Source: Squalus acanthias
Lineage: Eukaryota
Assembly (NCBI GenBank): GCA_030390025.1
Contig: CM059432.1
Location: 42,472,001-42,536,000, forward strand
Length of the DNA stretch: 64,000 nucleotides
Direction of reading: 5' to 3'
Of the stretch, positions 1,111-45,409 are shown in pieces; within the stretch, counting starts at the first letter, position 1; each line of letters starts with the position of its first letter. Position numbers and translations under genes: made by a program. Below the pieces are notes generated by a model, which saw nothing but the letters and a program-made list of their open reading frames with translations, made no database searches and was not told the origin of the DNA.

Positions 1111-1666
1111 GAACAGGAGACCGGGTTTTGGCTTAATATCTCATAAAAAGACAACGGGGTAAAAATTCACTTGGTTGCGCCTCCCGTTAGCGCCTTAAGA
1201 GGGCGCTAATGGGGCGTTAAGCCGCTAACGCCCGGGCGCAGCGCTGTTTGCGCCGCTCGAGAACTTAACTTGAGATTGTGCGGCGGCGCTAAAACTTACC
1301 GCTGCGACCACCTGCGCGCGCAGATTGTGACGTCATTCCATGGTGCAACGCCCTTGGGGCGCCCCGGAGCGGAAATTGAGTGGCGCCCCCTGCCTTACTG
1401 CCTGCCGCTTCCAACGACCGGAAGACTGGAACGTTATCAATCGGTGTGGGGCTGGGGGGGGCGCTATTTAAAGGGGGCCTCTTCCTGTCTTTTTCTGTGG
1501 TCGACATTTATGCACCACTCGTTCTGAGAGAGAGAGAGAGATTCGGAGAGAGAGAGAGAGAGACTTCTACATTGACTCAACGCTTTGTGAGGTAGTTTTG
1601 CCTATTCATCCTAATTTTGTTGCTACTTTAGTTGCTGTACCTCATTACTTTTCTGGCAAAGAGAAT

Positions 1667-1898
1667 ATGGGGGCTGCAATGATTGGGGGCGTCGTCCTGC
1701 TCCAGCTGAATCGGAGGATACAGAGACGCAGACAGAGAGTGGCAATGATGGCCAGACGGAGGAGGGCCATCAGGCGCATGCACAGGAGAGCTTACCCTCC
1801 CAGGGTATATCGTGAACAGCTCTCCTACATCCATATGTCCGAGGAGCTGTGTTTGCGGAGGCTGCGATTCAGCAAGGAGGTGGTCACTGAGCTTCTAG
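1667..1898 (+). pseudogene. Harbinger transposase remnant, about 929-bp deletion removes the DDE domain
   Basis: MGAAMIGG...FSKEVVTEL joined via a GCT microhomology to the last bases of the intact gene (TTCTAG). Confidence 0.9.
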
Positions 1899-2191
1899 GG
1901 CCCCTGCCATTGCTACAAACACTAATCAACCCAGCACGCAACCCCTGAGCCGGCCAAGGCACCAATAATTCCAACCACCAACCATGTATATTTTGAATAC
2001 AGAAACTTATTTATTTTACAAACTTTGTGTGTGTCAATTCCTCATGACAAACTCATAGAAATAAACACAAAAAACAGTCAATAACATAACTGGTTCTCAC
2101 AACCTGGAGATAATGTCCAAAACACTAAACAAAAGTTGGACCATGAACCTCGGCCTTTAATAAAAAAATGACCAGCATTTTGTCACACCTC

Positions 2192-3144
2192 CTACTTTTT
2201 GCCCTTCGAGGGTGATCTCCTTCCCTTGCGCACTTCCCCCCTTCTAACCCTACTGCTCCTCCGTAATGGGACCTCAGTGGCTGCAGCAAGGCTGGTGGAA
2301 GGCTGCTGCTCGTCAGACCCTGACACTGCAGATGCCCCTGAAGGACGGCCTCGACCACTTCTGGGCCTGGAGGGCCCGGCTGCAGACTGCACCAACTCTG
2401 CATGGGCGGCAGCAGTCTGTCCTACAGGCGGTGGCAAGTGCAGTGGAGAAGTGACAGTGTTGGCAGCAGGAATGCTGTCATCGTGAGAGAGGCCAGCAAC
2501 TCCCTGCTCGCCCGACACACTGGCACTCCCACGGGGCAGCACTTCAGCATCCGGAGCAATCTGCCGGAGAACAGATTGCTGGCCTGCTGCGGCGCGGTGA
2601 CAGCCCCGGGGACATGTGCACGAACCATCGAGGTTGGCAGCAGTCTGTGCTCGCGTGGCCTCCATCTGAGTCTGTATGAGAGCAGTCAGAGGTGGGATCA
2701 CGGCAGCCAGTGACTGAATTGCCTGTGCTACAGCGAAGTGCTCCACACTCCTTGCCAGTGACTCAATGCATTCGGGCACCCTTCCCACTGCACCCATGAG
2801 CTCAGTGTGCATGCCCACCGCCTGGGTGTTCATTTCTGCAATCAGCCGCTCCTCCTCTGCGTCCATTGCAGTAGGAGTGTCTGGCATACTCTCCCTCTGG
2901 GGAGAAGGCCCCCGTTCTTCCCTACCCCCCCCATGGCGTTGCTGCAGCCCGCTGGGTCCTGGAGCTTCACCATCATCAGCCCCTTCCCCCCTGCTCCCCT
3001 CCGGGGAAGGCGTGTTCCCAGTGTGGGCATGGGCTTCCTCGGGAGAGGGTGGCACTGATGCTCTGGCTTCCTCTTCCTCCTCAGCTGCAGCATCACTCCC
3101 AGTGGCAGCTTCAGGGTCCGTCTCCTCAGCTGGTGAATCACCAT
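2192..3144 (-). pseudogene. Last exon of Harbinger Myb/SANT partner gene (upstream exons missing)
   Basis: ORF 2192-3055 is nearly identical to 33353-34396; same TTTCAG acceptor; lacks the 87-bp duplication and a 27-bp segment. Confidence 0.88.
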
Positions 3145-3349
3145 CTGAAAGCAGGGAGGTACAAGAGTGGCTTTAGCGTGAGGACAGGGTGGCAGTAAGG
3201 GAGGAATAAGTGCAGCGACTCAATACGAGAGTGCTTCAACTGAGACAAGCGGACAGTTTATTGTACTCTTCTCCACGGTAATACTCCTTGTCCTACATTA
3301 CTCTCTGCAATAATAACGTATGTCCTATCTCACTACCTCTAATAATACA

Positions 3350-6982: not shown

Positions 6983-7167
6983 TTTTGAGGGCTGGTCTTC
7001 ATTCACATATAGCTGCCAATTGTGGGCAGAAAATGAGCACTTTGGGGCAGCCCACTGGCTCCAGGGCACCACTATATCTGGTGCACTGGAGCCAGTGGGC
7101 TGCCCCAAAGTGCTCGTTTTCTGCCCACAATTGGCAGCTATATGTGAATGAAGATCAGCCCTCAAAA
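6983..7167. repeat. Near-perfect palindrome / MITE-like hairpin
   Basis: 89-bp arms (6983-7071, 7079-7167) with 3 mismatches and a 7-nt loop. Confidence 0.92.
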
Positions 7168-8190: not shown

Positions 8191-9038
8191 TAAGTTCTAA
8201 GAGTATTCCAGGAACTAGAAATGTTATCATATGTGTAGCGCAGCATTTGGCTAATTACTGTTGTTTTATTTGATTTAAGAATCATTCTGTCACTGTATGC
8301 AAAATTAAGCCTGCTGTACTGCTTTCTTAACCTGTTCCTATTTTCTAATAAATTGATTGAATCGTACTCAACCAAGCCCAACACACTACCTGAGCTTGGC
8401 AACAAGAAGAGTGTCTGCTTCTGCTCTGAGGGAAACAGGCTAGAAGCCGAAGGCACCCTGTACATTTAAGTTAATAGTAGGAAGCATTACAGATACCACT
8501 CATATCTTCGTATTTTCTTTAACAATGGTACAATGTTAGCCAGACACAGTAATACTAGCATCATCTGCTATTTCTGGCAATGCCTCACCAGCTTAGCTAT
8601 TGTGCAATAATGCAATGCACATAATTAAAGAAACTGAAGAAAGCTACCCAGACCATGAGCTATCTAGATCAACTATCTCAATGCTACAGTTCAAGGTAAA
8701 TTCATTATTCCTGTGAACCCTGCAGGGAGTCACACTCGAAGGGAGTGTAGGTTAGAATCAGGGCTACTATTTTGTAGCACTAACTTCTTGACTCACACTT
8801 CCTTTCAGCATGATTCCTCACTTCTAAAAATTGCAAAAATATTTGTTATAAATAACAATAGCCAAGAATTTTCTGGAACTTTTCAGCATAACTACAGAGT
8901 AAGTGCACTATTTTTCCCCAAGGAAATTTGCACATAATTGCTGTCAGTCTCAGTGCACCCAACATTATTTTTGAAATAACAACAGAAAACGCTGGAAAAA
9001 CTCAGCAGGCCAGGCAGCATCCGTGGAGAGAGAAAGAG

Positions 9039-9075
9039 AGTTGACGTTTCAGGTCGATGACCTTTCATCAGAACT
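9039..9075 (-). ncRNA. Minimal type I hammerhead ribozyme
   Basis: Minus strand AGUU-CUGAUGA-A-AGGUC(AUC)GACCU-GAAA-CGUC-AACU: full core, stems I and II, palindromic mini stem III, GUC cleavage triplet. Confidence 0.85.
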
Positions 9076-9315
9076 GGGAAGAGCTGGAAATCAAATAGAT
9101 TTAAGGCCAGGGTAAAGCTGGGAAAAGGGGGAGGGGAAATCCCGTCGAAGAGAAGAGCAGAACTTCTTCAAGGTAGGCATTCCGAGAAGAGAGGTGGCAG
9201 TGAACCAAACACTAATACGATAGCAAAATACTGCAGATGCTGGAAATCCGAAATAACAACAGAAAACGCTGGAAAAACTCAGCAGGCCAGGCAGCATCCG
9301 TGGAGAGAGAAAGAG

Positions 9316-9352
9316 AGTTGACGTTTCAGGTCGATGACCTTTCATCAGAACT
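9316..9352 (-). ncRNA. Minimal type I hammerhead ribozyme (second copy)
   Basis: Identical to 9039-9075, 277 nt upstream on the minus strand. Confidence 0.85.
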
Positions 9353-9654
9353 GGGAAGAGCTGGAAATCAAATAGATTTAAGGCCAGGGTAAAGCTGGGA
9401 AAAGGGGGAGGGGAAATCCCGTCGAAGACCCTCCCGCACCCTGTATGTTAAGAAGGACTAAGCACTGGAATGGCCTTCCCAATGGGCATACCCCTATTGT
9501 GCAATAGTAATGGACGCAGAGCATGAGCAGCAGAGCCAAAAAGCTCTGAAAGTGAGGTGCCAGGGCAGAAGACGGCAGCCCACTCACTATTACTCCTAAT
9601 GGTGGGTCTGCACTTGTATTTGTTTCACACCAGTTTTTTCGTTCCAGTGTAGGC

Positions 9655-13299: not shown

Positions 13300-15239
13300 C
13301 TTCTCTGGGAGTGAGGCTGTGGAGCTCACTTGGAATTGTGGGCAATTAAAAGGGCTATGAATTAAAGGGGCAATGCACTCAGAAATAATAAAAATTAAAA
13401 TGCAGTGAATAAATGAAGTTTTCAGCCCTTACTGCCTTTCAAAAAAAATTAACATTATAAAGAAGTCCCAAATGTGATTATTCAGCTCTTAAAGCTGACT
13501 TCCCTTCTGACCCTCAAAAAATGGGTAAACTGCTTCAGCACTGATACAAATGGCTCAGCAAGCCAGGGAAGGGCCACCCAGGGTCTCGCACGCAGCACTC
13601 CAGCTTTGTGCAGGGGGTCAACACTGCAAGACAGGTCCTCTACCCACAGGGGCCAGGAGGCCCTCCAGAAAGAAGGATGTGGGACCACATCACTGAGGCC
13701 ATTACTGCCAGCAGTATCACCCCCACCACCTGGCTCCAGTGCCCAAAGAAGCTTCATGACCTCAGACCACTGGTCAAGGTCAGTGAATGCATCTTCAAAA
13801 GCCGTCTCCTACTAACTGCACCACTAACCTCACACACTGCTAAATGCACGACCCGCACACCGCACTACCAACAATCTGCACCAATCACGAGGCACATCTC
13901 CCATTCCTAGCCTCACCTCACCCCCTTGGAGGAGATGGTGCAGGCCATTCTTGGCATGACTGAGCCCTTGGCCAGCGGCGGGGCTGAAAGGATAAAAGGT
14001 GTTGGTATCATCATACATTATCCTCCTTCAGGCAAACACCTTTTGCTTTCCCGCCCGCCCGTCACCACAACTCCACCCTTGTGCCTTCCTCATTTCACCC
14101 ACCCAAGAAATGCAGCCTGCCCAGCCAGTGGTTGACCAAGAAGAGGGAGAGGAAAGTGAAGAAGAAGAAGAAGAAGAAGAAGAAGAAGAAACACTGTCAC
14201 TCGATTTCACACTCCCAGCCACCAGCTCCTCAAGGTCGACCAGCAAGGCTATTTGCAGTGTCCCCCACTGAAAGTCAGCAGCCTTCCACCAGCCATGCTG
14301 CAGTCACTGGGGTAGCACTGCGTGACATCAGTAGGATAGGCAAAGGCACACAGAAGACAGTCACTAAGAGAATGCATAAGGGTGATGAGTTGATTTCTTG
14401 ATGGCATATTGAATGGGTAGATGTATAAAGTTGGATTGGAAGGTATGCTTAGTGGTGGTTTTTATTTCAGCATTGTGGCCAAGAATGCACTGTGATGGTC
14501 AGTAACAGAGGGAAGGTAAAGTGTGGGATAAATGTAGAAATGGGAATTGGGGTTGTGGTCACTGGTACCGCAGGTGGATGATTCCATACCAGATATCCCG
14601 GCCAGGAAGGGGCTGTCTGGGTTGCATCCTTCCTTCTGCTTCCTCCTCTTCGGCTTTTTCCTCTTCTATGTCTTCCTCTTCCCTCTCTAAGTGGATGCTG
14701 TAAATCTGAAATGACAGCATAAAATGCTGGAAATACTCAGTTGGTCAGGCAGCATCTCAACCTCCACGGATGTTGCCTGACCTGATGAATATTTGCAGCA
14801 TTTTCTGTCTTCTCAGAGGTCTTCCTTTACCATCTGAAGCCTTGCAAGCATCCAGCAGCACTCCCTGCACACTTAAAAAAAACTTTTAACATCTATTGCA
14901 GCAAGCCACTACTTCAGTAAAATTTAAAAAAAAACAGTCCAAAAGCTTAAATCCAAACTTACCTGAATGATGTTTGTGTCCCTTTAAGAGGTGTTGACAT
15001 TGCCACTGTCAGCCTGCTTGCATGCCAGGTTTACCTGGCATGCTTAGGACCCAGCGCTAGGGTCGAAGTTCGGACGGTGACGTTAAGTCGGCGTTGCCAG
15101 TTACTGGCAGCGCAAAGGGAAGGAGGAAAATGGTGGTGGCCGCGGGACCCGCCACCAGCTGGCGAAAGAGTGATGTCCGCCATTTTTCCACCATTTCATG
15201 GCACTACGGAGTGGCGGTAAGTAGATGAATTTCTAGTCC
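13300..15239. mobile_element. Decayed Harbinger-family element (Myb gene remnants on +, transposase largely deleted)
   Basis: TWLQCPKKLHDLRPLVK|GTCAGT Myb exon-1 motif, acidic (GAA)n exon, terminal GAATTTCTAGTCC matching the TIR consensus; homologous to 48705-59009. Left boundary approximate. Confidence 0.75.
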
Positions 15240-16142: not shown

Positions 16143-17878
16143 TCACGTCATGTATCGTGACATAAACCCAAGATCCCGATTGAGACCGTCTTCATGAGTG
16201 CAGAACTTGGCTATCAGTTTCTGCTCGATGATTTTGCGTTGTCGTGTGTTTCTAAGGTTGCCTTGGAGAACGCTTACCCGCAGATCCGAGGCTGAATGTC
16301 CTTGACTGCTGAAGTGTTCCCCGACTGGGAGGTAACAATCCTGCCTGGCGATTGTTGCGCGGTGCTCGTTCATACGTTGTCTCAGTGTCTGCATGGTCTC
16401 GCCGATGTACCATGCCGCGGTGCATTCTTTCCTGCAACGTATGAGGTAGACAACGTTGGCCGAGTCACATGAGTATGTACCATGTACCTGGTGGGTAGTG
16501 TCCTCACGTGTGATGGTGGTATCTGTGTTGATGATCTGGCATGTCTTGCAGAGTTTGCCATGGCAGGGTTGTGTGGTGTCGTGGTCGCTGTTATCCTGAA
16601 AGCTGGGTAATTTGCTGCGAACGATGGTACTTCTGAGGTTAGGCGGCTGTTTGAAGGCAAGTAGTGGAGGCGTGGGGATGGCCTTAGCGAGGTGTTTGTC
16701 GTCATCGATGACATGTTGAAGGCTGCGAAGAACATGTCGTAGTTTCTCCGCTCCGGGGAAGTACTGGATGACGTAGGGTACCCTGTTGGTTGTGTCCCGT
16801 GTTTGCCTTCTGAGGAGGTCTATGCGATTTTTCGCTGTGGCCCGTCGGAACTGTCGATCGATGAGTCGAGCGTCATATCCCGTTCTTACGAGGGCGTTTT
16901 TCAGCGTCCGTAGGTGTCCATCGCGTTCCTCCTCGTCTGAGCAGATCCTGTGTATTCGCAGGGCTTGTCCATAGGGGATGGCTTCTTTAACATGGTTAGG
17001 GTGGAAGCTGGAGAAGTGGAGCATCGTGAGGTTGTCCGTGGGCTTGCGGTAGAGTGAAGTGCTGAGGTGTCCGTCTTTGATGGAGATTCGTGTGTCCAGG
17101 AATGAGACCGATTCTGAGGAGTAGTCCATGGTGAGTTTGATGGTGGGATGGAACTTGTTTATGTTATCGTGTAGTCTTTTCAGTGATCCTTCGCCATGGG
17201 TCCAAAGGAAGAAAATGTCGTCGATGTATCTGGTGTACAGCGTTGGCTGGAGGTCCTGTGCAGCGAAGAAGTCTTGCTCGAACTTGTGCATGAAGATGTT
17301 GGCGTATTGGGGTGCGAATTTGGTCCCCATGGCTGTTCCGTGTGTTTGGGTAAAAAAATGGTTGTCGAAGGTGAAGACATTGTGGTCAAGGATGAAGCGG
17401 ATGAGTTGTAGGATGGCGTCTGGAGATTGGCTGTTGTTGATGTTGAGTACTGAGGCTGTTGCAGCGATGCCGTCATCGTGGGGGATACTGGTGTAGAGTG
17501 CCGATACGTCCATCGTGGCAAGGAGTGTTCCTGGTTCAACTGGTCCGTGGGTGCTGAGTTTCTGTAAGAAGTCTGTAGTGTCGCGACAGAAGCTGGGGGT
17601 TCCCTGTACGATGGGTTTCAGAATGCCCTCGACGTATCCAGAGAGGTTCTCACACAGGGTTCCATTGCCTGATACGATAGGACGTCCGGGTGTGTTGGCT
17701 TTGTGTATCTTTGGGAGGCAGTAGAAGTCTCCCACGCGGGGAGTACGTGGGATGAGAGCGCGTAGGATGTTTTGAAGGTCTGGATCGAAGGTCTTGATCA
17801 GTCTATTGAGTTGGCGGGTGTGTTCTTTGGTCGGATCTGCGGGTAGCTGTCTGTAGTGTTCCTGGTTGTCCAGTTGTC
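16143..17878 (-). CDS. Penelope-type reverse transcriptase + GIY-YIG endonuclease (N-terminally truncated, uninterrupted frame)
   Basis: FYCLPKIHK, GRPIVS, MDVSALYTSI, GTAMG, RYIDDIF, FLD, YRKPTD; VVYLIRC..C...WYIGET..LRQRMNEH...GLN; the frame is open upstream of the listed start up to the TSD. Confidence 0.9.
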
Positions 17879-18504
17879 CAATAAAAGGATGTCAGTGCAA
17901 GCCCATGATACTTAAATCACCTGCACCCAGAAATTCACCCCCTCTCGAGAACTGACTCCACCCGACCTACCATCTTACGAGCCTGGAGGCCAGCTGGGCT
18001 GCCAGAGATCCCGGGGAGTTGGAGCCAGCGGGTAACCCAGGCGCTCTCATTTTCCACCCGCAGCCCACTGGTCACACAGCTGGCAAAGATAGGAGACTTT
18101 CAAGTCATTCATTAGGGCTGGACTTATGTCCCAGAGATGAAAATGTAATATTCCAAGCTCCCGTGCCACTCCTGCCTTCTGTTAATCGTTTAGTTATTTA
18201 TTTGTTGAAACAGTGCTGCCGATGACATCAGGCTAGTTGGTTCGCAGGAGGTATTGAGCCTGGCAGTTTAAGGCAGTTAAATTAGCATGCACTGTTAAAG
18301 TGACAGTTGTTGAAATATCCTAGGTTAATGAATGTGTGTGTAATTAGGTTATTTGTGTTTCCAAGTTAATTAACTCCTCCAAACAAGTTAGATTGATATC
18401 ACCAATACTCACTATTTCAAAAACAATAGGGGAAGATTCACTCTGTTCGCTATGTGTGAGCAACACTATAAACATAATGGAAATTTCCTTTGATGTCTAC
18501 TGGT

Positions 18505-18717: not shown

Positions 18718-20352
18718 GGAGATCTTCCCCCCACGGCTGCCAACCTCATAGTTCCCCAACCCCGCACAGCCCGCTTCTACCTCCTTCCCAAGATCCACAA
18801 ACAGGACTGCCCTGGTAGACCCATCGTTTCAGCCTGTTCTTGCCCCACGGAACTTATCTCTTCCTATCTTGACTCTATTTTTTCTCCCCTTGTCCAGTTT
18901 CTTCCCACCTACACCCGCGATTCCTCTGACGCTCTCCGCCACTTTAACAGTTTCCAGTTTCCTGGCCCCAACCGCCTCCTTTTCACCATGGACGTACAAT
19001 CCCTCTACACCTCCATCCCCCACCAGGATGGCCTGAGGGCGCTCCGCTTCTTCCTTGAACAGAGGCCCAACCAGTCCCCATCCATCGCCACCCTCCTCCG
19101 CCTGGCTGAACTTGTTCTCACATTGAACAACTTCTCCTTTGACTCCACTCATTTCCTCCAAATCAAAGCTGTTGCTATGGGTACCCGCATGGGTCCTAGC
19201 TATGCCTGCCTTTTTGTGGGATATCTGGAACACTCTTTGTTCCAGTCCTACTCGGGTCCCCTCCCTCACCTCTTTTTCCGGTACATTGATGACTGTATCG
19301 GTGCCGTTTCCTGCTCTCGCCCTGAACTAGACAATTTCATTCACTTTGCCTCCAATTTCCACCATTCCCTCACCTTCACATGGTCCATCTCCGACTCTTC
19401 CCTTCCCTTCCTCGACTTCTCCGTCTCCATCTCTGGGGATAGGTTATTGACCAACATTCACTACAAGCCCACTGACTCCCACAGCTACCTGGACTACACT
19501 TCCTTCCACCCCGCCTCCTGTAAGGACTCTATTCCATTCTCCCAGTTTCTCCGTCTCTGTCACATCTGCTCTGATGATGCCACCTTCCATACCAGTGCTT
19601 CCGACATGTCTTCCTTTTTCCTCAACCAAGGATTCCCCTCTACCGTGGTCGACACGGCCCTCGACCGTGTCCGTTCTATCTCCCGCACTTCTGCCCTCAC
19701 CCCGGCCCCTCCCTCCCGGAACCATGATAGGGTTCCCCTTGTCCTCACCTTTCACCCCACCAGCCTCCACATTCAACGGATCATCCTCCGCCATTTCCGC
19801 CACCTCCAGCGTGATCCCACCACCAAACGTATCTTCCCCTCACCTCCCCTTTCAGCATCACGTAGGGACCGCTCCCTCCGAGGCACCCTAGTCCACTCCT
19901 CTATCACCCCCAGCACCCCTTCCCCCTCGCCCAGCACCTTCCCATGCAAGCGCAGGAGATGCAACACCTGCCCTTATACATTCCCCCTTCCCACTCTCCA
20001 GGGCCCCAAACACCCCTTCCAGGTGAAACAGCGATTTACTTGTACTTCTTGCAATCTAGTATACTGTATTCGCTGCTCACGATGTGGTCTCCTCTACATT
20101 GGGGAGACCAAACGCAGATTGGGTGACCGCTTTGCGGAACACCTCCGTTCAGTCCGTAAGGGTGACCCCGAGCTTCCGGTCGCTTGTCATTTTAATTCAC
20201 CTCTCCACGCCCACTCAGACCTCACCGTCCTCAGCCTCGTGCATTGTTCCACGGAAGCTCAGCGTAAGCTCGAGGAACAGCACCTCATCTTCCGATTAGG
20301 CACTTTACAGCCTTCCGGACTCAATATCGAGTTCAACAATTTCAGATCATAA
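18718..20352 (+). CDS. Penelope-type RT + GIY-YIG endonuclease (N-terminally truncated)
   Basis: FYLLPKIHK, GRPIVS, MDVQSLYTSI, AMGTRMGP, RYIDD, YKPTD, LVYCIRCSRCGLLYIGETKRRL..RFAEH, GLN. The first 20 aa of the listed ORF are SINE-derived. Confidence 0.9.
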   Translation, partial: GDLPPTAANLIVPQPRTARFYLLPKIHKQDCPGRPIVSACSCPTELISSYLDSIFSPLVQFLPTYTRDSSDALRHFNSFQFPGPNRLLFTMDVQSLYTSIPHQDGLRALRFFLEQRPNQSPSIATLLRLAELVLTLNNFSFDSTHFLQIKAVAMGTRMGPSYACLFVGYLEHSLFQSYSGPLPHLFFRYIDDCIGAVSCSRPELDNFIHFASNFHHSLTFTWSISDSSLPFLDFSVSISGDRLLTNIHYKPTDSHSYLDYTSFHPASCKDSIPFSQFLRLCHICSDDATFHTSASDMSSFFLNQGFPSTVVDTALDRVRSISRTSALTPAPPSRNHDRVPLVLTFHPTSLHIQRIILRHFRHLQRDPTTKRIFPSPPLSASRRDRSLRGTLVHSSITPSTPSPSPSTFPCKRRRCNTCPYTFPLPTLQGPKHPFQVKQRFTCTSCNLVYCIRCSRCGLLYIGETKRRLGDRFAEHLRSVRKGDPELPVACHFNSPLHAHSDLTVLSLVHCSTEAQRKLEEQHLIFRLGTLQPSGLNIEFNNFRS

Positions 20353-20628
20353 CCTCGGCCCCTACCACATATCCACCCTTTTGGTTTGTGCCTTTTCCCT
20401 TTTTATTCTCTCTCTCCCCCCACGGCAGCTGTCTCTCATTCTGCCAGCATTTCACACTTCACACTTCTGAGCCACCTTTTGTTTCTTAACCTGTCCTATT
20501 ACCATCTCGTCTTGCCTTGAGCATCTCTTAATGTCTTTACTTACCATACACCACCCCTTTTGTTCTTTTATTCCTCCCCCCAGCCTCCCCCTTGCTTTTT
20601 TATCTGTTTCATTTCCTGCTTTTTTCTC

Positions 20629-20664
20629 AGCTCTGATGAAGGGTTTCGACCTGAAACGTTAACT
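20629..20664 (+). ncRNA. Minimal hammerhead ribozyme (slightly degenerate)
   Basis: CUGAUGA-AGGGUUUCGACCU-GAAACGUU-AACU. Confidence 0.65.
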
Positions 20665-20719
20665 CTGTTTCTCTCTCCACGGATGTTGCCTGGCCTGCTG
20701 AGTTTTTCCAGCGTTTTCT

Positions 20720-20950
20720 GGAGTTATCCCTGGTGTCCTGGCCAATATTTATCCCTCAATCAACCTCTAAAACAGATTATCTGGTCATTATCACATTGCT
20801 ATTTGTGGGAGCTTGCTGTGCACAAATTGGCTGTTGTGTTTCCTACATTACAACAGTGACTACCCTACAAAAGTACTTCATTGGCTGTAAAGCACTTTGG
20901 GATGACCTGAGGTCATGAAAGGCGTTATATAAGCAGAAGTCTTTCTTTCT
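20720..20950 (+). mobile_element. Deu-domain SINE, 3' half
   Basis: GGAGTTATCCCTGGTGTCCTGGCC...GCACTTTGGG...GCGTTATATAA plus TCTT tail. Confidence 0.75.
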
Positions 20951-32270: not shown

Positions 32271-34396
32271 ATGGAGAGGGTGAGAGAACGCGCTCATCGC
32301 TTCACCGAGCGGGCCTTGGATGCTCTGGTTGACGCAGTGGAGCGCAGACGATGCATGCTGTTCCCGGAGAGTGGCAGGAGGCCTTTGCCACGCGAGTTCA
32401 GAAGAGTGTGGAGGGAGGTGGCTCAGAGCGTCTCCTCCAGGAGCATGGTGCCCAGGACCCATGTCCAGTGCCGCAAAAAGTTCAACGACCTCACTCGGGT
32501 CGTCAGGGTGAGTGGCTTTTTCTCAATACCTCTCCATCCCTCCATCTCAACCTCACTCTATGGCCAGAGGGTCTTAAAACCCCAATGCACAACACTCATG
32601 CAACACCTATGGCCCTTTCATCAAACACACACACACATTCCACACTTTGCATACAGTAAGGGCTATTCACCTATGGGAGGCACATCAGGCAAGACCATGG
32701 CTGCATATTGTAAGGGCTATTCACCTATGGGAGGCACATCAGGCAAGACCATGGCTGCATATTGTAAGGGCTATTCACCTATGGGAGGCACATCAGGCAA
32801 GACCATGGCTGCATATTGTAAGGGCTATTCACCTATGGGAGGCACATCAGGCAAGACCATGGCTGCATATTGTAAGGGCTATTCACCTATGGGAGGCACA
32901 TCAGGCAAGACCATGGCTGCATATTGTAAGGGCTATTCACCTATGGGAGGCACATCAGGCAAGACCATGGCTGTATATTGACTCAGATGCTGTCCTTTTT
33001 CTTGCAGGCTAAGCTGGCTCATAATCGGAGACAGCAGCAACGGACGGGTGGAGGGCGGCTTCAACTGCAACCCCTCAGCGATCTGGAGGAGCGCGTCCAC
33101 AGGATTGTGGCAAGCCGGGTGATCGGTCCCGTCGCCACTGGAGACGCCGACCCCGTTGTGGACAGCAATGGTAAGGTCATCACCTTTTTGTCCTCTGTCC
33201 TTCCACTTGTCCCTCACAATACCAGCCTTTGACACTTTCAATCCAACTTGCTAACTCGCTGCACTTATTCCTCCCTTACTGCCACCCTGTCCTCACGCTA
33301 AAGCCACTCTTGTACCTCCCTGCTTTCAGATGGTGATTCACCAGCTGAGGAGATGGTCCCTGAAGCTGCCACTGGGAGTGATGCTGCAGCTGAGGAGGAA
33401 GAGGAAGCCGGAGCATCAGTGCCACCCTCTCCCGAGGAAGCCCATGGCCACACTGGGAACACGCCTTCCCCGGAGGGGAGCAGGGGGGAAGGGGCTGATG
33501 ATGGTGAAGTTCCAGGACCCAGCGGGCTGCAGCAACGCCATTGGGGGGGGAGGGAAGAACGGGGGAGCAGGGGGGAAGGGGCTGATGATGGTGAAGTTCC
33601 AGGACCCAGCGGGCTGCAGCCACGCCATGGGGGGGGGAGGGAAGAACGGGAGCCTTCTCCCCAGAGGGAGAGTATGCCAGACACTCCTAATGCAATGGAC
33701 GCAGAGGAGGAGCGGCTGATTGCAGAAATGAACAGCCAGGCGGTGGGCATGCACACTGAGCTCATGGGTGCAGTGGGAAGGGTGCCCGAATGCATTGAGG
33801 CACTGGCAAGGAGTGTGGAGCACTTCGCTGTAGCACAGGCGGATGCCACACTAAAGCTTACTGCTGCAATTCAGTCACTGGCTGCCAGGAATCCATCTGA
33901 GACTGCTCTCATGCAGACTCAGATTGAGGCCACGCGAGCACTGACTGCTGCCATCCTCGATGGTTCGTGCACATGTCCCCGGGGCTGTCACCGCGCCGCA
34001 GCAGGCCAGCAATCTGTTCTCCGGCAAATTGCTCCGGATGCTGAAGTGCTGCCCCGTGGGAGTGCCAGTGTGTCGGGCGAGCAGGGAGTTGCTGTCCTCT
34101 CTCACGATGACAGCATTCCTGCTGCCAACACTGTCACTTCTCCACTGCACTTGCCACCGCCTGTAGGACAGACTGCTGCCGCCCATGCAGAGTTGGTGCA
34201 GTCTGCAGCCGGGCCCTCCAGGCCCAGAAGTGGTCGAGGCCGTCCTTCAGGGGCATCTGCAGTGTCAGGGTCTGACAAGCAGCAGCCTTCCACCAGCCTT
34301 GCTGCAGCCACTGAGGTCCCATTACGGAGGAGCAGTAGGGTTAGAAGGGGGGAAGTGCGCAAGGGAAGGAGATCACCCTCGAAGGGCAAAAAGTAG
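32271..34396 (+). CDS. Harbinger Myb/SANT-like (trihelix) DNA-binding protein, 3 exons: 32271-32507, 33008-33170, 33330-34396; 488 aa
   Basis: RFTERALDALV...WREVA...RTHVQCRKKFNDL motif; GT-AG introns (AGG|GTGAGT..TTGCAG|, G|GTAAGG..TTTCAG|) join in frame (237+163+1067 nt); RTGGG motif; basic C-terminus. Confidence 0.88.
32656..32979 (+). repeat. 54-bp minisatellite x6 in Myb-gene intron 1
   Basis: Unit GTAAGGGCTATTCACCTATGGGAGGCACATCAGGCAAGACCATGGCTGCATATT; five identical units, one substitution in the sixth. Confidence 0.97.
33476..33649 (+). repeat. 87-bp in-frame tandem duplication in Myb exon 3
   Basis: GSRGEGADDGEVPGPSGLQxRHxGGREER x2; single copy in the sister element. Confidence 0.93.
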
Positions 34397-34690
34397 GAGG
34401 TGTGCCAAAATGCTGGTCATTTTTTTATTAAAGGCCGAGGTTCATGGCCCAACTTTTGTTTAGTGTTTTGGACATTATCTCCAGGTTGTGAGAACCAGTT
34501 ATGTTATTGACTGTTTTTTTGTGTTTATTTCTATGAGTTTGTCATGAGGAATTGACACACACAGAGTTTGTACAATAAATAAGTTTCTGTATTCAAAATA
34601 TACATGGCTGGTGGTTGGAATTATTGGTGCCTTGGCCGGCTTAGGGGTTGCGTGCTGGGTTGATTCGTGTTTGTAGCACTGGCAGGGGCC

Positions 34691-35851
34691 CTAGAAGCGG
34701 CTTGCTATTAGTCGTTGACGGACGGCCCTTGCAGTTTGACCATTGTGGGCCGCCCTCCTGCCTTGGTGCTGCTGCTGATCATCGTCCTCGGCCTGTTCCT
34801 CCTCTTCCTCCTCCTCCTCTTGTGGTGCTGCAAGGCCTGGTGGCATTGGCTGCGTCCTGAGGATTGCCATGTTGTGCAACATGCAGCACACCACTACGAA
34901 TTTGGAAACTTGCTCAGGCAAGTACTGCAGGGCTCCTCCGGAATGGTCCAGACAGCGGAATCGTTGTTTGAGCACGCCGATTGTGCGCTCAATAATGTTC
35001 CTCGTTGCTTGTTGGCTTTCCTGGTACCGCAGCTCAGCAGGGGTGTTTGGCGCACGGAGCGGTGTCATCAGCCAGGTGCTCAATGCGTACCCCTTGTCCC
35101 CCAGAAGCCAACCAACTGGCTGATGCGGTGCCTCGAAAATTTCTGCCACAGTACTCTGGCGCAGGATGAAAGCATCGTGGCAGCTGGCCGGATAGTGGGC
35201 ATTGACAGCGAGAATCACCTGTCTGTGGTCACAGACCAACTGCACATTCAAGGAATGGAACCCCTTTCTGTTCCGGAACTCCTCTGCATTCTCTCGCGGA
35301 GCACGCAAAGCCACATGCGTGCAGTCAATGGCGCCCTGCACCATGGGGAAGCCCGCTACCCTCGCAAAGCCCATAGCACGGTCATGCTGCTTGTCTGGGG
35401 TCATAGGGAAGGAGATGAAGTCTCGTCTCCTTGTGAAGAGGGCATTGGTGACCTGCCGGATGCAGCGATGCACCGCAAACTGGGAGATATTGGCGAGGTC
35501 CCCAACAGCAGCTTGGAATGAGCCAGTGGCGTAGAAGTTCAAGGCCACTGTGACCTTCACTGCCACCGACAGAGACGTCCTGGACCTCAGCTGAGGCTGC
35601 AGATCTGGCTGCAGCAGGTGGCAGAGCTCAGTGACCACCTCCTTGCTGAATCGCAGCCTTCGCAAACACAGCTCCTCGGACATGTGGATGTAGGAGAGCT
35701 GTTCACGATATACCCTGGGAGGGTAAGCTCTCCTGTACATGCGCCTGTTGGGCCTCCTCCGTCTGGCCATCATTGCCACTCTCTGTCTGCGTCTCACTCT
35801 CCTCCGATTGAGCTGGAGCAGGACGACGCCCCCAATCATTGCAGCCCCCAT
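34691..35851 (-). CDS. HARBI1-like Harbinger DDE transposase, 386 aa
   Basis: Uninterrupted ORF with GAIDCTHV, NRKGFHSLNVQLVCD, HDAFIL, LLGDKGY, IERTIGVLKQRFRCL, CCMLHN. Confidence 0.95.
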   Translation of the reverse strand: MGAAMIGGVVLLQLNRRRVRRRQRVAMMARRRRPNRRMYRRAYPPRVYREQLSYIHMSEELCLRRLRFSKEVVTELCHLLQPDLQPQLRSRTSLSVAVKVTVALNFYATGSFQAAVGDLANISQFAVHRCIRQVTNALFTRRRDFISFPMTPDKQHDRAMGFARVAGFPMVQGAIDCTHVALRAPRENAEEFRNRKGFHSLNVQLVCDHRQVILAVNAHYPASCHDAFILRQSTVAEIFEAPHQPVGWLLGDKGYALSTWLMTPLRAPNTPAELRYQESQQATRNIIERTIGVLKQRFRCLDHSGGALQYLPEQVSKFVVVCCMLHNMAILRTQPMPPGLAAPQEEEEEEEEQAEDDDQQQHQGRRAAHNGQTARAVRQRLIASRF

Positions 35852-36405
35852 CTTCTCTTTGCCAGAAAAGTAATGAGGTACAGCAACGAAAGTAGCAGCA
35901 AAGTTAGGATGAACTAGGCAAAACTACCTCACAAAGCGTTGAGTCAATGTAGAAGTCTCTCTCTCTCTCTCTCCGAATCTCTCTCTCTCTCTCAGAACGA
36001 GTGGTGCATAAATGTCGACCACAGAAAAAGACAGGAAGAGGCCCCCTTTAAATAGCGCCCCCCCCCAGCCCCACACCGATTGATAACGTTCCAGTCTTCC
36101 GGTCGTTGGAAGCGCCAGGCGGTAAGGCAGGGGGCGCCACTCAATTTCCGCTCCGGGGCGCCCCAAGGGCGTTGCACCACGGACTGACGTCACAATCTGC
36201 GCGCGCAGGTGGTCGCAGCGGTAAGTTTTAGCGCCGCCGCACAATCTCAAGTTAAGTTCTCGAGCGGCGCAAACAGCGCTGCGCCCGGGCGTTAGCGCCT
36301 TAACGCCCCATTAGCGCCCATTTAAGGCGCTAACGGGAGGCGCAACCAACTGAATTTTTACCCCCAAGAGTTTAAATTTGAGGTAAGAGTTTTTTAATTA
36401 AAAGT

Positions 36406-40808: not shown

Positions 40809-41252
40809 GCACTTGAAACGCCATAGCATACAAGGCTACGGACCAAGTGCTGGAAAATGGGATTAGAATAGACAGGGCTTGATGGCCGGCGCAGACGCGA
40901 TGGGCCGAAGGGCCTCTTTCTGTGCTGTATAACTCTATGTTTCTATGATTCAAGCCCCATTCCAGAAGCTTGAGCACATAATCCAGGCTGACACTTCAGT
41001 GCAGTACTGAGGGAGTGCTGCACTGTCGGAGGTGCAGTCTTTTGAAGGAGGCATTTAATCAAGGCCCCGTCTTCCCCCTCAGGTGAATGTAAAATATCCC
41101 ATAGCACTTTTCTAATGCTATCCCTCAACTGACAGCACCTAAAACAGATTTTCTGGCTATTTATCTCATTGCTGTTTGTGGGACCTTACTGTAGCAAATT
41201 CTCTGCCACATTTCCCTACTTTACAACAGTAACTATACTTCAAAAGTACTTA

Positions 41253-42320
41253 TACAAAAACAAAATACTGCGAATGCTGGAAAGCTGAAATAAAAACAGA
41301 AATGCTGGAAATACTCAGCAGGTCAGGCTGCATCTGTGGAGAGAGAAACAGAGTTAATGTTTCAGGTCGATGACCTTTCATCAGAACTGGAAAAAGTTAG
41401 AGATGTAACAGGTTTTTAAGCAAGTGCAGGGGCAGGGAAAGGGGGAGGGGAAGAAAGAAGAAAAGGGAAGGTCTGTGATAGGATGGAAGGCAGGAGAGAT
41501 TAAATAACAAAAGGTATGACTGTACAAAGCAAAAGGAGATGCTAATGGAACAAGTAAAAAAACAAAAGATGAGTCTAGAAGAGGTGTAAATGGGAATGGC
41601 AGAATCAGCAACAGCTGTCATGTGAAAAAATAGGGGCAGAGGTTATGCCCTGAGATTGTTGAACTCGATATTGAGTCCAAAAGGCTGTAACGTGCCTAAT
41701 CGAAAGATGAGGTGCTGTTCCTCGAGCTTCCGTTGAGCTTCGTTGGAACAGTGTCCCCAATGGGGAAACCAAAGGCAGATTGGGTGACTGCTTTGCGGAA
41801 CACCTCCGTTCAGACCGCAAGCTTGACCCCAAGCTTCCAGTCGCCTGTCACTTTAATTCTCCGCTCCACTCCCACACTGACCTTTCGGTCCTCGGCCTCC
41901 TACACTATTCCAACAAAGCTCAACGTAAGCTCCAGGAACAGCACCTCATCTTTCAGACCATAACCTCTCCCCCTATCTTTTCAGATGGCAGCTGTTGATG
42001 ATTCTGCTATTCCCATTTACACCACTTCTAGACTCATCTTTTTGTTTCTTTACTTGTCCCAGTAACATCTCCTTTTGTTTTGTACTATCGTACCTTTTGT
42101 CATTTAATCACTCCTGCCTTCCACCCTATCACAGACCTTCCCTTTTGTTCTTTCCTCCCCTCCCCCCTTTCCCTGCCCCTGCACTTGCTTAAAATCTGTT
42201 ACATCTCTAACTTGTTCCAGTCCTGACAAAAGGTCATCGACCTGAAGCCTTAACTCTGTTTCTCTCTCCACAGATGCTACCTGAGCTGCTGAGTATTCCA
42301 GCATTTTCTGTTTTTATTTC
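41253..42320. mobile_element. Penelope-derived insertion with inverted 3' ends (pLTRs facing outward)
   Basis: Left arm is a minus-strand PLE 3' end (hammerhead 41352-41388); right arm is a plus-strand GIY-YIG end plus degenerate hammerhead (42219-42255); 10-bp TSD. Confidence 0.85.
41352..41388 (-). ncRNA. Minimal hammerhead ribozyme (CG to CA change in stem III)
   Basis: AGUU-CUGAUGA-AAGGUCAUCGACCU-GAAACAUU-AACU. Confidence 0.6.
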
Positions 42321-42800: not shown

Positions 42801-45409
42801 TAAGAACATATGCTAATATAACAGTGTTAATATTCAATTGAAATTAAGTTTGGCCAGTTGTTGCTGTGCGCTACTGTTTATGGAAGGTGTTTTATTTCTT
42901 CTGTTGATATCATGGCCAACATCAATGGGCTGGATGCTCAATTCAAGTGATGCCTGATGTATGACACCCTCACTGAGAAATCAAATTTGTGAAGTAATCA
43001 CTGCAAGATTACTGGAATTTGTTCTTTAATTTATGACTAGGAAGTGGCACAGCTGTACATAAGATTTTACTGTTGCGTGAATGAAGCTTTTGAGGGCGAT
43101 AAGTGATGCGGTGGAGATTCACATTAACAAAAAAATTATTGGAAACAATCAGGAGGTCAGGCAGAATCTGTGGAGAGAGAAGCAGAGTTAAAGATTTGTT
43201 GTGGAGCCTGCATCAAATCACATTGGCCCAGATTCTCCTGCAACAACGAGTTCGGCTACTTAGCCTATAAATGTAACTGTCTAACGCGCTGATCTTGGTG
43301 TCGATAAGTTTCCTGCCTTTGTAATTAAAATACGCCACAGTGAGAATGGCAGGCGAATTGGAAGCGGTGTGCCATTATTTCTTTGCAATCCCACGAATAG
43401 CAATTTAAGTTTTGCAAATTGTCTTTTAATGTGAATCCGAAGTATGGCGCCCATCCAACATGCTCCTCCCACCTAGCCTGTTCTCTGCTCGATGGAATCG
43501 GTCAGCCTGCTTCTGTTCAGAGCACGTCATGAATTTGAGTACGGAGATTCCACAGGTGTGCTCAACCTAATCTCTAACTTCAGTCCTGCCCATGTTTAAT
43601 AGTTTGAGCGATTTAAAAAAAAAACTATTAGCTTTAAAACACGTTGCTACCAGGCCACGAACAGCATTATTTTAAAATCTAAGTGGCAGCGCACACAAAA
43701 TGGCGAGAATACAGCAAAATCGCGTTTGCCATTATTTTAACTGGGAGAGCAGAGCTATGAAAATTAGCCTCCAACTGTTTTTCGACAAGGGGTAACAGCG
43801 AAACTGCGCAAACGTCAGAGGAAAATAGGCAGTGCCATAAATCATGGCATAAGTCACTTAGTCCATTATTTCCTCTTTCTTTTATGCCGTTCAAGGATCC
43901 CGGTGATGTAAATGTACCAAAATAATGAAGCAAATCTCCAGGAAGGTGTTGTGTTGAGCGACTAATTTTCAGAATGGCAGTTTCTTTGTTGGGTACCTAA
44001 AAACAATATTGACAGAGACGAAGAAACTGAATTTGTCGAGGGAAAACATGTACTTATATGCACAAAATTTCAGCAGGTCTGACAAGCATTTCAGCATGCT
44101 AAGTGGCAAAGAGAACTGCCACTAAACTGTAATTCATGTCAGTTTAGGAGACACATTATGGTGCCGTAATGCTTTTTTGGAATATTAGCAACTGGTTTTA
44201 TTTTTAAACTATGAAACTGTGCATCTAGACTTAGCTCTTTTTACTAATATTTTTGCAGACAAATTAGGACCCCTTTATACCACAAGTAATAAAGAAAGAA
44301 AAACTTGCAGTTATGTAGTTTTATTGTTGTCGTTCAGAGACATCTGAAAGGATTTCACCTAAAATGAATTAATTTAAAGTGCAGTGACCTGTTTTATAGA
44401 CAAAAACAGCTGCCATTTTGGACACAGCAAAAATCCCACAAAATGCAATGAGATGAATCACCAGTTAATCAATTTTTGGTAGTATTGGTCAAGGGAAAAA
44501 TGTTGGCCAGGAGAATTCCCTCTTCTTCTTCGAGTAATGCTTTGACTGCAAACAATTCTCTGCCTCATTTTAAGTTCCCATCGTTCCTTATAACTGAGAG
44601 GGCAGTTAAATAACCTCTACCCAGCTACCTACCAATGCCACTTCTGAACTGCTCATTAGGAAATGACCAGCACGCCTTCACTTTTCCCCACATGACTCTG
44701 TGGCGGTCCCAGATGGCTTGTCATAAATTGGGAACTCACCTTGCAGGGAAATGCGGCTCGGAGTATGTGGCGGTTTTGATGGTGCACCAGCACCCTGTGC
44801 CACTAGGCTGCTCGGTTACCAAAATCCCTAAGCATTTCACATTATCAAATATTAATGTGGTATTCTTATTTGATTTCTCAGAACCTATTCTGCGCCATTA
44901 GAATGAGTTTGCTTATATTTTAGACTGCAATCTACAGGGTGTTTTAAAATGGTCTATCTTGCACTGCAGTGCAATCACTCATTTTCTAATTTAGTTTAAT
45001 TAGTAAGGTATGAAATTTTATAGTCTGCCAGATTCCCCTAATCACAAGCTATCAGCATTCTGTGCATACCTTTATGGATCATAATTTGTACATATGTGCC
45101 ATAGCAGCCTTTTTCACCTCTGCTGAATTTTTAGTGGTATTTGGCCCATAATTTCAAATAAATTCCTGAGAGTCATTTCCAAATTCTCAATCGGTTACTG
45201 AAAATATGCCTTCCACCTCTGAATTTTTATTTTTCACCACCATAAATGCCTGTGCCAGTTTCCGGCAAAGTTGTTTGTACTGAGTTGCTGTGCTCCAGGA
45301 GCACTAAACATCCATTTGCAGCTGTTGATTCTTTATTGTGGATGATTGCATTGACATCATGGCCTTAATGGAAACTTGGCGCATGGGTGACGAAATACTT
45401 GCTCCTTAT

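Follow-up and report, generated by a model that had tools for sequence, protein, structure and literature searches.

Non-LTR retrozymes of animals were defined in work that demonstrated their RNA circles and that, in its available text, names Penelope-like elements (PLEs) as the likely helpers (PMC7229834). According to the accessible text of a recent preprint, retrozymes derive from the pLTRs of PLEs, they occur in one chondrichthyan with a mean consensus of 363 bp, local amplification is suggested, and cleavage was obtained in one of nine predicted dimers (bioRxiv 10.64898/2026.07.22.740005). That animal retrozymes are Penelope derivatives is already published. As far as the available text of both sources goes, animal retrozymes are non-coding tandem repeats whose units measure 170-400 nt, carry a type I hammerhead and have a GC content below 50%; they have long target duplications and show both co-occurrence and kinship with Penelope pLTRs (PMC7229834; bioRxiv 10.64898/2026.07.22.740005). 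Retrozymes described in the accessible literature form one-monomer families, often have a canonical hammerhead, and yield abundant, highly paired circles.

PLEs of the Neptune and Nematis type are defined by a CX2-5CxxC linker in the accessible part of PMC8557442. In what is available of three sources, they combine a reverse transcriptase (RT) and, at the C terminus, a GIY-YIG domain with a CX4CxxC linker, and occur as partial tandems with 5' inversions, an optional tail of 30-40 bp and a minimal hammerhead in the pLTR (PMC8557442; PMC11167929; PMC4209133). Chlamys MRC1-type PLEs, in the same partly available source, are non-autonomous, carry pLTRs, occur in multiple head-to-tail copies, have a 3' end similar to that of an autonomous family, and constitute stable, named algal families (PMC8557442). 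The satellite-2-type repeats of newt and axolotl are, in the available account, tandem units of about 330-350 nt with a weak palindromic helix III and dimer-dependent cleavage, with tens of thousands of copies, two monomers, tertiary contacts and proven RNA circles (PMC7229834).

We analysed a 64,000-nt stretch of the Squalus acanthias genome (contig CM059432.1, positions 42,472,001 to 42,536,000; the window), in which an insertion of two hammerhead-bearing repeats had been annotated as a retrozyme-like unit. Two questions meet here, namely whether Penelope tandems of more than one unit arise via a sealed circle or a template jump, and how animal retrozymes originate from Penelope. The unit (277 nt, GC 47%) resembles animal retrozymes in its non-coding tandem organisation, size, type I hammerhead and GC content, and its short relatives in the genome, which we call minis, resemble them in their target duplications and in their relation to Penelope pLTRs; the chondrichthyan mean of 363 bp is close to the median mini unit of 345 nt. 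Minis differ from retrozymes in that nearly every locus has its own monomer, in their minimal hammerhead, which is that of the parent, and in the retained start of the parent ORF. They share with the Chlamys elements all the organisational traits listed above, but are mostly single-locus derivatives in an animal. The newt and axolotl repeats are like the unit in tandem size, helix III and its predicted dependence on dimers for cleavage, and differ from it in copy number, monomer types, tertiary contacts and proven circles. The parent family has the listed Neptune/Nematis traits; unlike PLEs, the insertion misses 2.9 kb of a 3.2-kb monomer and encodes nothing.

Layout of the insertion and its predicted hammerheads

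The initial annotation reported two 179-bp direct repeats with a period of 277, and these are exact: positions 8973-9151 and 9250-9428 are 100% identical over precisely 179 bp, and the identity stops at both edges. Read on the minus strand, the insertion consists of parent positions 99-115, 3038-3199, 1-115 and again 3038-3199 (Table 1). It was rightly seen as one monomer that continues beyond a full turn, with the junction repeated, and as Penelope-derived: relative to the young parent subfamily, the unit has a single private base difference, at 9184. An ORF check of the unit agreed that it is non-coding and found no RT ORF in it. The fusion of pLTR to an ATG stretch, also noted before, is present in both repeats, but the ATG stretch is merely the start of the parent ORF.

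Table 1. Segments of the insertion and its older relative, in window coordinates
Feature	Position	Strand	Description
Whole insertion	8973..9428	-	456 bp, 1.65 turns (456/277) of the 277-nt unit; without target-site duplication
5' stub	9412..9428	-	parent 99-115, inside the ORF start; 17 nt
Upstream-turn 3'UTR/pLTR of parent	9250..9411	-	parent 3038-3199
Minimal type I hammerhead motif 1	9316..9352	-	predicted cut 9320/9319
Parent 1-115	9135..9249	-	5'UTR with 'tail' region, ATG at 9180, first 15 codons
29-codon frame	9091..9180	-	15 parent residues, then into the 3'UTR
Deletion junction	9135..9137	-	3-nt microhomology; second copy at 9412-9414; about 2.9 kb of parent absent
3'-terminal turn	8973..9134	-	parent 3038-3199; end 8973 is the family's main 3' end, inferred RT start
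Minimal type I hammerhead motif 2	9039..9075	-	predicted cut 9043/9042
Older sibling	18718..20727	+	RT and GIY-YIG, different 3'UTR, 5'-truncated; hammerhead 20633-20656 with GUU triplet

The insertion is an internally deleted mini-copy of a young, intact Penelope parent, probably Neptune-type, in which the 3'UTR with the hammerhead is fused to the 5'UTR and 15 codons. The 17-nt stub carries the junction, and the deletion junction has therefore been copied twice. Such a layout, with ORF-start sequence upstream of the first turn, would not result from a chromosomal deletion. In line with the initial annotation, this is not a one-off local tandem duplication of an ordinary pLTR, an origin ruled out by the stub and by the family-wide pattern of similar minis (45 of 95 sampled loci). 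Taken alone, the locus is a dead-end insertion, and a host function is not indicated.

On the minus strand, each repeat contains CUGAUGA with one additional A, a stem II of 5 bp, GAAA-C-GUC and a stem I of 4 bp (AGUU/AACU). Stem III is one base pair closed by a 2-nt palindromic loop, and pair 10.1-11.1 is A-U, not G-C (G-U in an older subfamily). The core boxes, a helix I of 4-5 bp, the extra base after position 9 and the palindromic 15.2-16.2 are all found as in minimal PLE hammerheads, whereas G10.1-C11.1 and a Schistosoma-like helix II of 7-8 bp (here 5 bp) are not. The motif is thus a predicted ribozyme of the minimal Penelope type (PMC4209133), and the predicted cut positions given for it earlier are correct. 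The description of the hammerheads as canonical does not hold, given stem III, the A-U pair, a stem I of 4 bp against the 6-bp helix I of canonical type I motifs, which also have loop 1-loop 2 contacts, and the lack of an Rfam hammerhead match, with none at E<=1 in a scan of the whole 64-kb window. A loose core pattern occurs in the window at chance level (10 matches against 6.6 +/- 2.6 expected) and is uninformative, so the hammerhead call depends on the complete motif and its location within the element.

In folding predictions, the minimum-energy structure of the region is not the ribozyme fold. For stems I and II the energy is -5.9 kcal/mol, beyond the cut-off of -5 used in the preprint, although the value was obtained outside the preprint's pipeline (bioRxiv 10.64898/2026.07.22.740005). 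For isolated 37-mers, the best alternative structure reaches -23.7 kcal/mol and the double-hammerhead dimer -9.9, so an active dimer gets no support from folding. Folding of the linear unit does not exceed that of shuffled sequences (z -0.04) and the circular form is 51% paired, which falls short of the high self-pairing of retrozymes. Across the family, stem I is complete (4/4 pairs) in 137 of 142 matched copies, the core is unmatched in 20 of 162, and CCGA replaces the CUGA of the core in 11 of 162; double compensatory changes were absent from these copies. Core, stem I and stem II are conserved across subfamilies, and the changes fall at tolerated positions.

The parent family and other elements of the window

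The parent is represented by locus L036, a 3199-nt monomer whose ATG is at 70 and whose ORF encodes 916 aa; its hammerhead core lies at 3101, with a predicted cut after 3129. Its protein matches the Pfam families RVT_1 (E 2e-5) and GIY-YIG (E 4e-4), both below the curated cut-offs, and has a C-x4-C-x2-C linker at about residues 782-790, between RT and endonuclease. It fits a PLE in its single ORF, its RT and C-terminal GIY-YIG with CxxC inside the motif, and its partial tandems, tail and inversions. We regard it as probably Neptune-type, a clade name that depends on the CX2-5CxxC linker motif, which is also found in Nematis. The 916-aa frame is intact in 19 of the 95 sampled loci described below. 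Searching with the unit listed at least 60 matches, most of 263 nt at 99-100% identity, and many of them run past the ATG into the long frame. Exact matches number 839 for a 33-mer at the ATG and 3045 for one that covers the hammerhead, and the reversed control of either gave none. The family is young (99-100% identity) and combines many open 916-aa ORFs with many independent minis, which makes junctions, ends and target duplications readable.

The copy at 18718-20719 had been named as a possible helper that shares the pLTR. It is indeed related to the unit and the parent family (84% identity over the pLTR, 95% at the amino-acid level), but it is an older sibling that as it stands lacks its first ~370 codons and does not qualify as the helper. 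As the source of the unit it is ruled out, since the younger subfamily matches all but one base. Loci L066 and L068 belong to an older subfamily with another 3'UTR and the CCGA core change, yet their 916-aa frames are open. At L063 and L099, pieces of the family are nested in copies of the same family, with parent 1658-1675 duplicated around the inserted piece at L063. Older solo pLTR remnants in the window, 79-85% like the unit, lie at 41248-41452, 42156-42320, 14694-14808 and 43140-43189; at 41360-41384 the core is retained and the palindromic stem III is lost. A second, distant Penelope-like family occupies 16143-17891 on the minus strand, with an RT match at E 9e-9 and, by eye, a GIY-YIG-like end and a cysteine linker.

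Elsewhere in the window, a two-ORF element is present in two copies that are 96-98% identical and in opposite orientation (1156-3218 and 33256-36364); the ORF at 34691-35923 may encode a transposase of the Harbinger/PIF type. A 54-bp tandem repeat makes about eight turns at 32594-33025. The near-perfect 67-nt hairpin at 7042-7108 scores 48 bits for Rfam mir-3116 against a gathering score of 65, on both strands, and is probably a mere palindrome.

Short derivatives of the parent across the genome

All 95 loci behind the first 100 of the 839 ATG matches (contigs C1-C3) were classified as minis (45), long copies (46) or copies ending early (4). Because it requires the ATG region, this sample over-represents minis; in a hammerhead-based sample they hold 5 of 100 copies (of 3045). 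Scaling from the first sample gives about 380 mini loci genome-wide, of which dozens are certain and hundreds likely. The 45 mini units measure 208-528 nt (median 345), with left breaks at parent 100-420, 43 of them within 100-203, and right breaks at 2933-3095. About 41 different junctions were found among them, including four shared pairs. Five tested junctions occur at 1, 1, 2, 3 and 5 loci genome-wide, the last three having been chosen because they were shared.

The 277 junction gave two matches at <=1 mismatch in the 3.7 Gb searched, both within the insertion itself. This rules out a single dispersed 277-nt family; the parasite family of 277-nt monomers that the initial annotation had envisaged is not supported, the lack of further genomic copies being a result that the annotation itself had named as refuting. 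With a non-coding unit in the range of about 170-450 nt and a predicted hammerhead in each of two turns, the insertion has the tandem organisation of a non-LTR retrozyme; a dispersed family of one monomer was not found. It thus appears to resemble a nascent non-LTR retrozyme, and it falls outside the class on family structure and self-pairing. The 297 junction is likewise confined to one locus, L022 (contig C10, 70923.3-70926.4 kb), where a 297-nt mini makes ten turns and provides 967 stop-free codons of a 99-aa repeat. If this unit were circular, its length, divisible by three, would give an endless reading frame from the parent ATG.

At loci with informative SNPs, a shared junction is found on more than one parent subfamily (L067 and L099 versus L137; L107, L109 and L151 versus L150 and L152; L094 versus L104), so these junctions recur independently and do not descend from one mini. 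Pairs on the same background could be lineages. Strict junction calls were made at both sampled and targeted loci; they required 14 exact bases on each side relative to L036, dropped diverged cases and gave 23 distinct junctions. Microhomology of at least 2 nt (2-4 nt) is present in 16 of the 23, against 24% by chance (p 6e-6). The hammerhead is whole in all 45 sampled minis though 27% of the microhomology opportunities lie past the motif (p ~7e-7, with loci treated as independent). One mini outside the sample, at L158/L159, is an exception that lacks the 5' strand of stem I yet was copied twice; it comes from a set of 21 matches (L156-L174) in which the left break repeatedly falls on parent position 172, without microhomology and with many different right ends, in a search whose pattern itself fixed the two letters after the break.

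Mini 3' ends are those of the parent, at 3185-3199 or with a tail of +28-48, in 65 of 72 chains (targeted loci included). Flanking repeats of at least 7 bp accompany 24 of the 45 minis and, among the other copies that could be scored, 29 of 50, a comparison that does not include a shuffled control. Target duplications also flank entire multi-turn arrays (L002, L004, L040, L089). Marks of retrotransposition are therefore present at the level of the family, and the insertion under study has the parent's 3' end without a duplication. Copying by a Penelope RT, as proposed in the initial annotation, is almost certain from the parent 3' ends and target duplications across minis.

In all seven sampled arrays in which a direct second turn reaches the break (L040, L043, L049, L086, L097, L100, L119), it repeats the junction, and the same holds in eight targeted arrays (L001, L002, L004, L012, L015, L022, L089, L090). 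Eight inverted second pieces reach the break, of which six repeat the junction, the one in L044 stops there and the one in L100 passes unbroken. At L071, a near-full copy is connected to a mini piece, and both L071 and L100 contain mini/non-mini joins across an inversion. Ragged junctions are limited to two arrays, L012 and L100; the four turns of L012 include three different junctions, and one fixed 5' end at 3027 is compatible with each of them. As the second turn repeats the junction while minis are so rare among hammerhead copies, the template itself must have been short; independent rare jumps on full-length RNA would not hit the same spot twice. Of 57 5' ends, three coincide with the predicted cut site at 3130 and four lie at 3162. 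Non-mini 5' ends number 16 in 2960-3097 and 23 in 2700-2960.

Origin of the short units and RNA-type data

We lean towards an origin in which the parent RT went 1.65 times round a short leader RNA by way of the 3-base microhomology, hammerhead cleavage being likely unneeded. Minis are accordingly likely to be made anew by the parent's copying enzyme and not to have spread as one parasitic circular RNA. The template would be a short RNA that extends from a 5' end X (parent 2933-3095) across the seam of pLTR and 5'UTR to a 3' end Y. X may correspond to a pLTR start site or to an edge protected by protein, and Y would lie about 30-120 nt into the ORF. The parent protein would bind this RNA, nick the target and begin at an internal position, either 3199 or about +35 in the tail; the RT would then run to X, hop to Y on the same RNA and repeat this until falling off, here at parent 99. 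The insertion at 8973-9428 would likely represent one such event. Arrays of this kind, with their two predicted hammerheads, would be nascent non-LTR retrozymes that could give circles later. We prefer looping because ligation of RNA does not depend on homology, while jumping by a polymerase preferentially uses it, and because founder loci were not found. The three junctions of L012 and the twice-copied mini of L158/L159 that lacks one strand of stem I also speak for it. In vitro, the Penelope RT of an anole starts internally and requires the initial 172 nt of its ORF, but hammerhead cleavage is dispensable (PMC11167929). The two 3'-end classes of parent and minis correspond to features of the anole element, namely its tail and its two internal RT starts; that element is a Poseidon element whereas the parent here is Neptune-type (PMC11167929).

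Other observations speak against looping. Ordinary 5' ends give no independent sign of RNA 5' ends in the X window, where they do not pile up, the mini/non-mini inversion joins of L071 and L100 do not suit it, and ragged junctions are confined to two arrays. Hammerhead retention in every sampled mini is equally expected from selection for ribozyme function, the ten identical junctions of L022 suit a sealed circle at least as well, and the three 5' ends on 3130 are a weak hint of cleavage in vivo.

The latter three points lead to a retrozyme cycle, the mechanism of the initial annotation, as a real though less likely alternative. Here, a single RT jump would have made a founder mini with two hammerheads elsewhere, its transcript would be cut by dimeric hammerheads, a host ligase would close a 277-nt circle, and rolling-circle copying by the parent RT would have deposited it at this locus. 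Conservation of core, stem I and stem II and the junctions common to 2-5 loci are consistent with such a cycle. The units are also in the size range of animal retrozymes, for which circle formation and in vitro sealing by RtcB are described in the available text of PMC7229834, and a circle model for Penelope tandems is presented in the accessible part of PMC4209133. However, founder loci for the 277 and 297 junctions are absent from the assembly, and founders predict one jump followed by an unbroken second turn, which was observed in none of the seven direct second turns. Shared junctions span subfamily backgrounds, and the circle and the linear unit show the weak self-pairing given above. Minimal hammerheads cleave poorly in vitro in the available account of PMC4209133, and eight of nine predicted Xenopus retrozyme dimers failed to cleave in that of the preprint (bioRxiv 10.64898/2026.07.22.740005). 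RNA-type contigs give no evidence of circles, though contigs cannot show circles.

If looping is the origin, a further step may be considered, which we put forward as doubtful: a live Neptune RT looping on its own leader would give birth to retrozymes serially, as hundreds of independent arrays, and a core of about 205 nt (parent 3095-3199-100) would suffice for mobility. The arrays would then amount to a natural deletion scan of the mobility core. If they were also cut and sealed, the animal would hold hundreds of different ribozyme circles, including the endless 297-nt frame. The serial one-off birth of arrays with ORF-start junctions was not found in the literature consulted, which was mostly open-access, and the preprint tables may list the same arrays. 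Deletion junctions are not described in the available text of the preprint, which points to local amplification (bioRxiv 10.64898/2026.07.22.740005). Pipelines that score tandem hammerhead repeats as active retrozymes may count one-off by-products. The family supplies both the enzyme and short templates on which looping and a circle would be distinguishable in vitro.

Microhomologies of 2-4 nt are also consistent with repair by end joining, and the deletion could have arisen at the DNA level, in cDNA or in an inserted copy, to give a small DNA circle or a deleted copy whose turns stem from rolling copying or unequal exchange; an extrachromosomal DNA circle is a possible variant of this. Rotifer Penelope copies with microhomology deletions are described in the accessible part of PMC3846280, and the local tandem expansion proposed in the available preprint text points the same way (bioRxiv 10.64898/2026.07.22.740005). 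We nevertheless judge a DNA-level origin improbable. A chromosomal deletion predicts an upstream turn that continues into the 3'UTR, whereas here the junction and 17 nt of ORF start are found. Breaks are restricted to two narrow windows, and the arrays, 99-100% identical to the youngest parent, begin at arbitrary points of the unit and have single target duplications at their bounds. Aberrant splicing or back-splicing of parent RNA as the source of the short template has very little left in its favour: the 3'UTR ahead of the hammerhead is pyrimidine-rich, the deleted part at the 277 junction can start with GT, and a D. virilis Penelope intron ends at hammerhead helix I in the available text of PMC4209133, but none of the 23 strict junctions fits GT-AG and the different break pairs number in the dozens.

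Family sequence is present in 18 sequencing runs, all represented by Logan contigs that are mostly RNA only by guess and that can show neither ends nor circles. Of the runs aligned to L036, four contain family sequence, and three contain the mini joint 172>3031 at a depth of 106-136; the 277 joint is not among the 15 of 42 joints listed. The 172>3031 joint was considered as an abundant circle and rejected, since it maps to L166 and the host flanks are covered without mismatch at like depth, which indicates read-through. In L166 (positions 1000-2000; contig C10, 131.45 Mb) the mini lies inside a host transcript, with covered flanks in contigs of two organisms. Two further joints on L036 are 3085>5765, in which the 3' end of the element and 23 foreign letters precede parent ~2680 (depth 383 and 153), and 3317>5284, which skips 1966 nt (depth 354 and 392). 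They possibly represent older, stable non-autonomous families.
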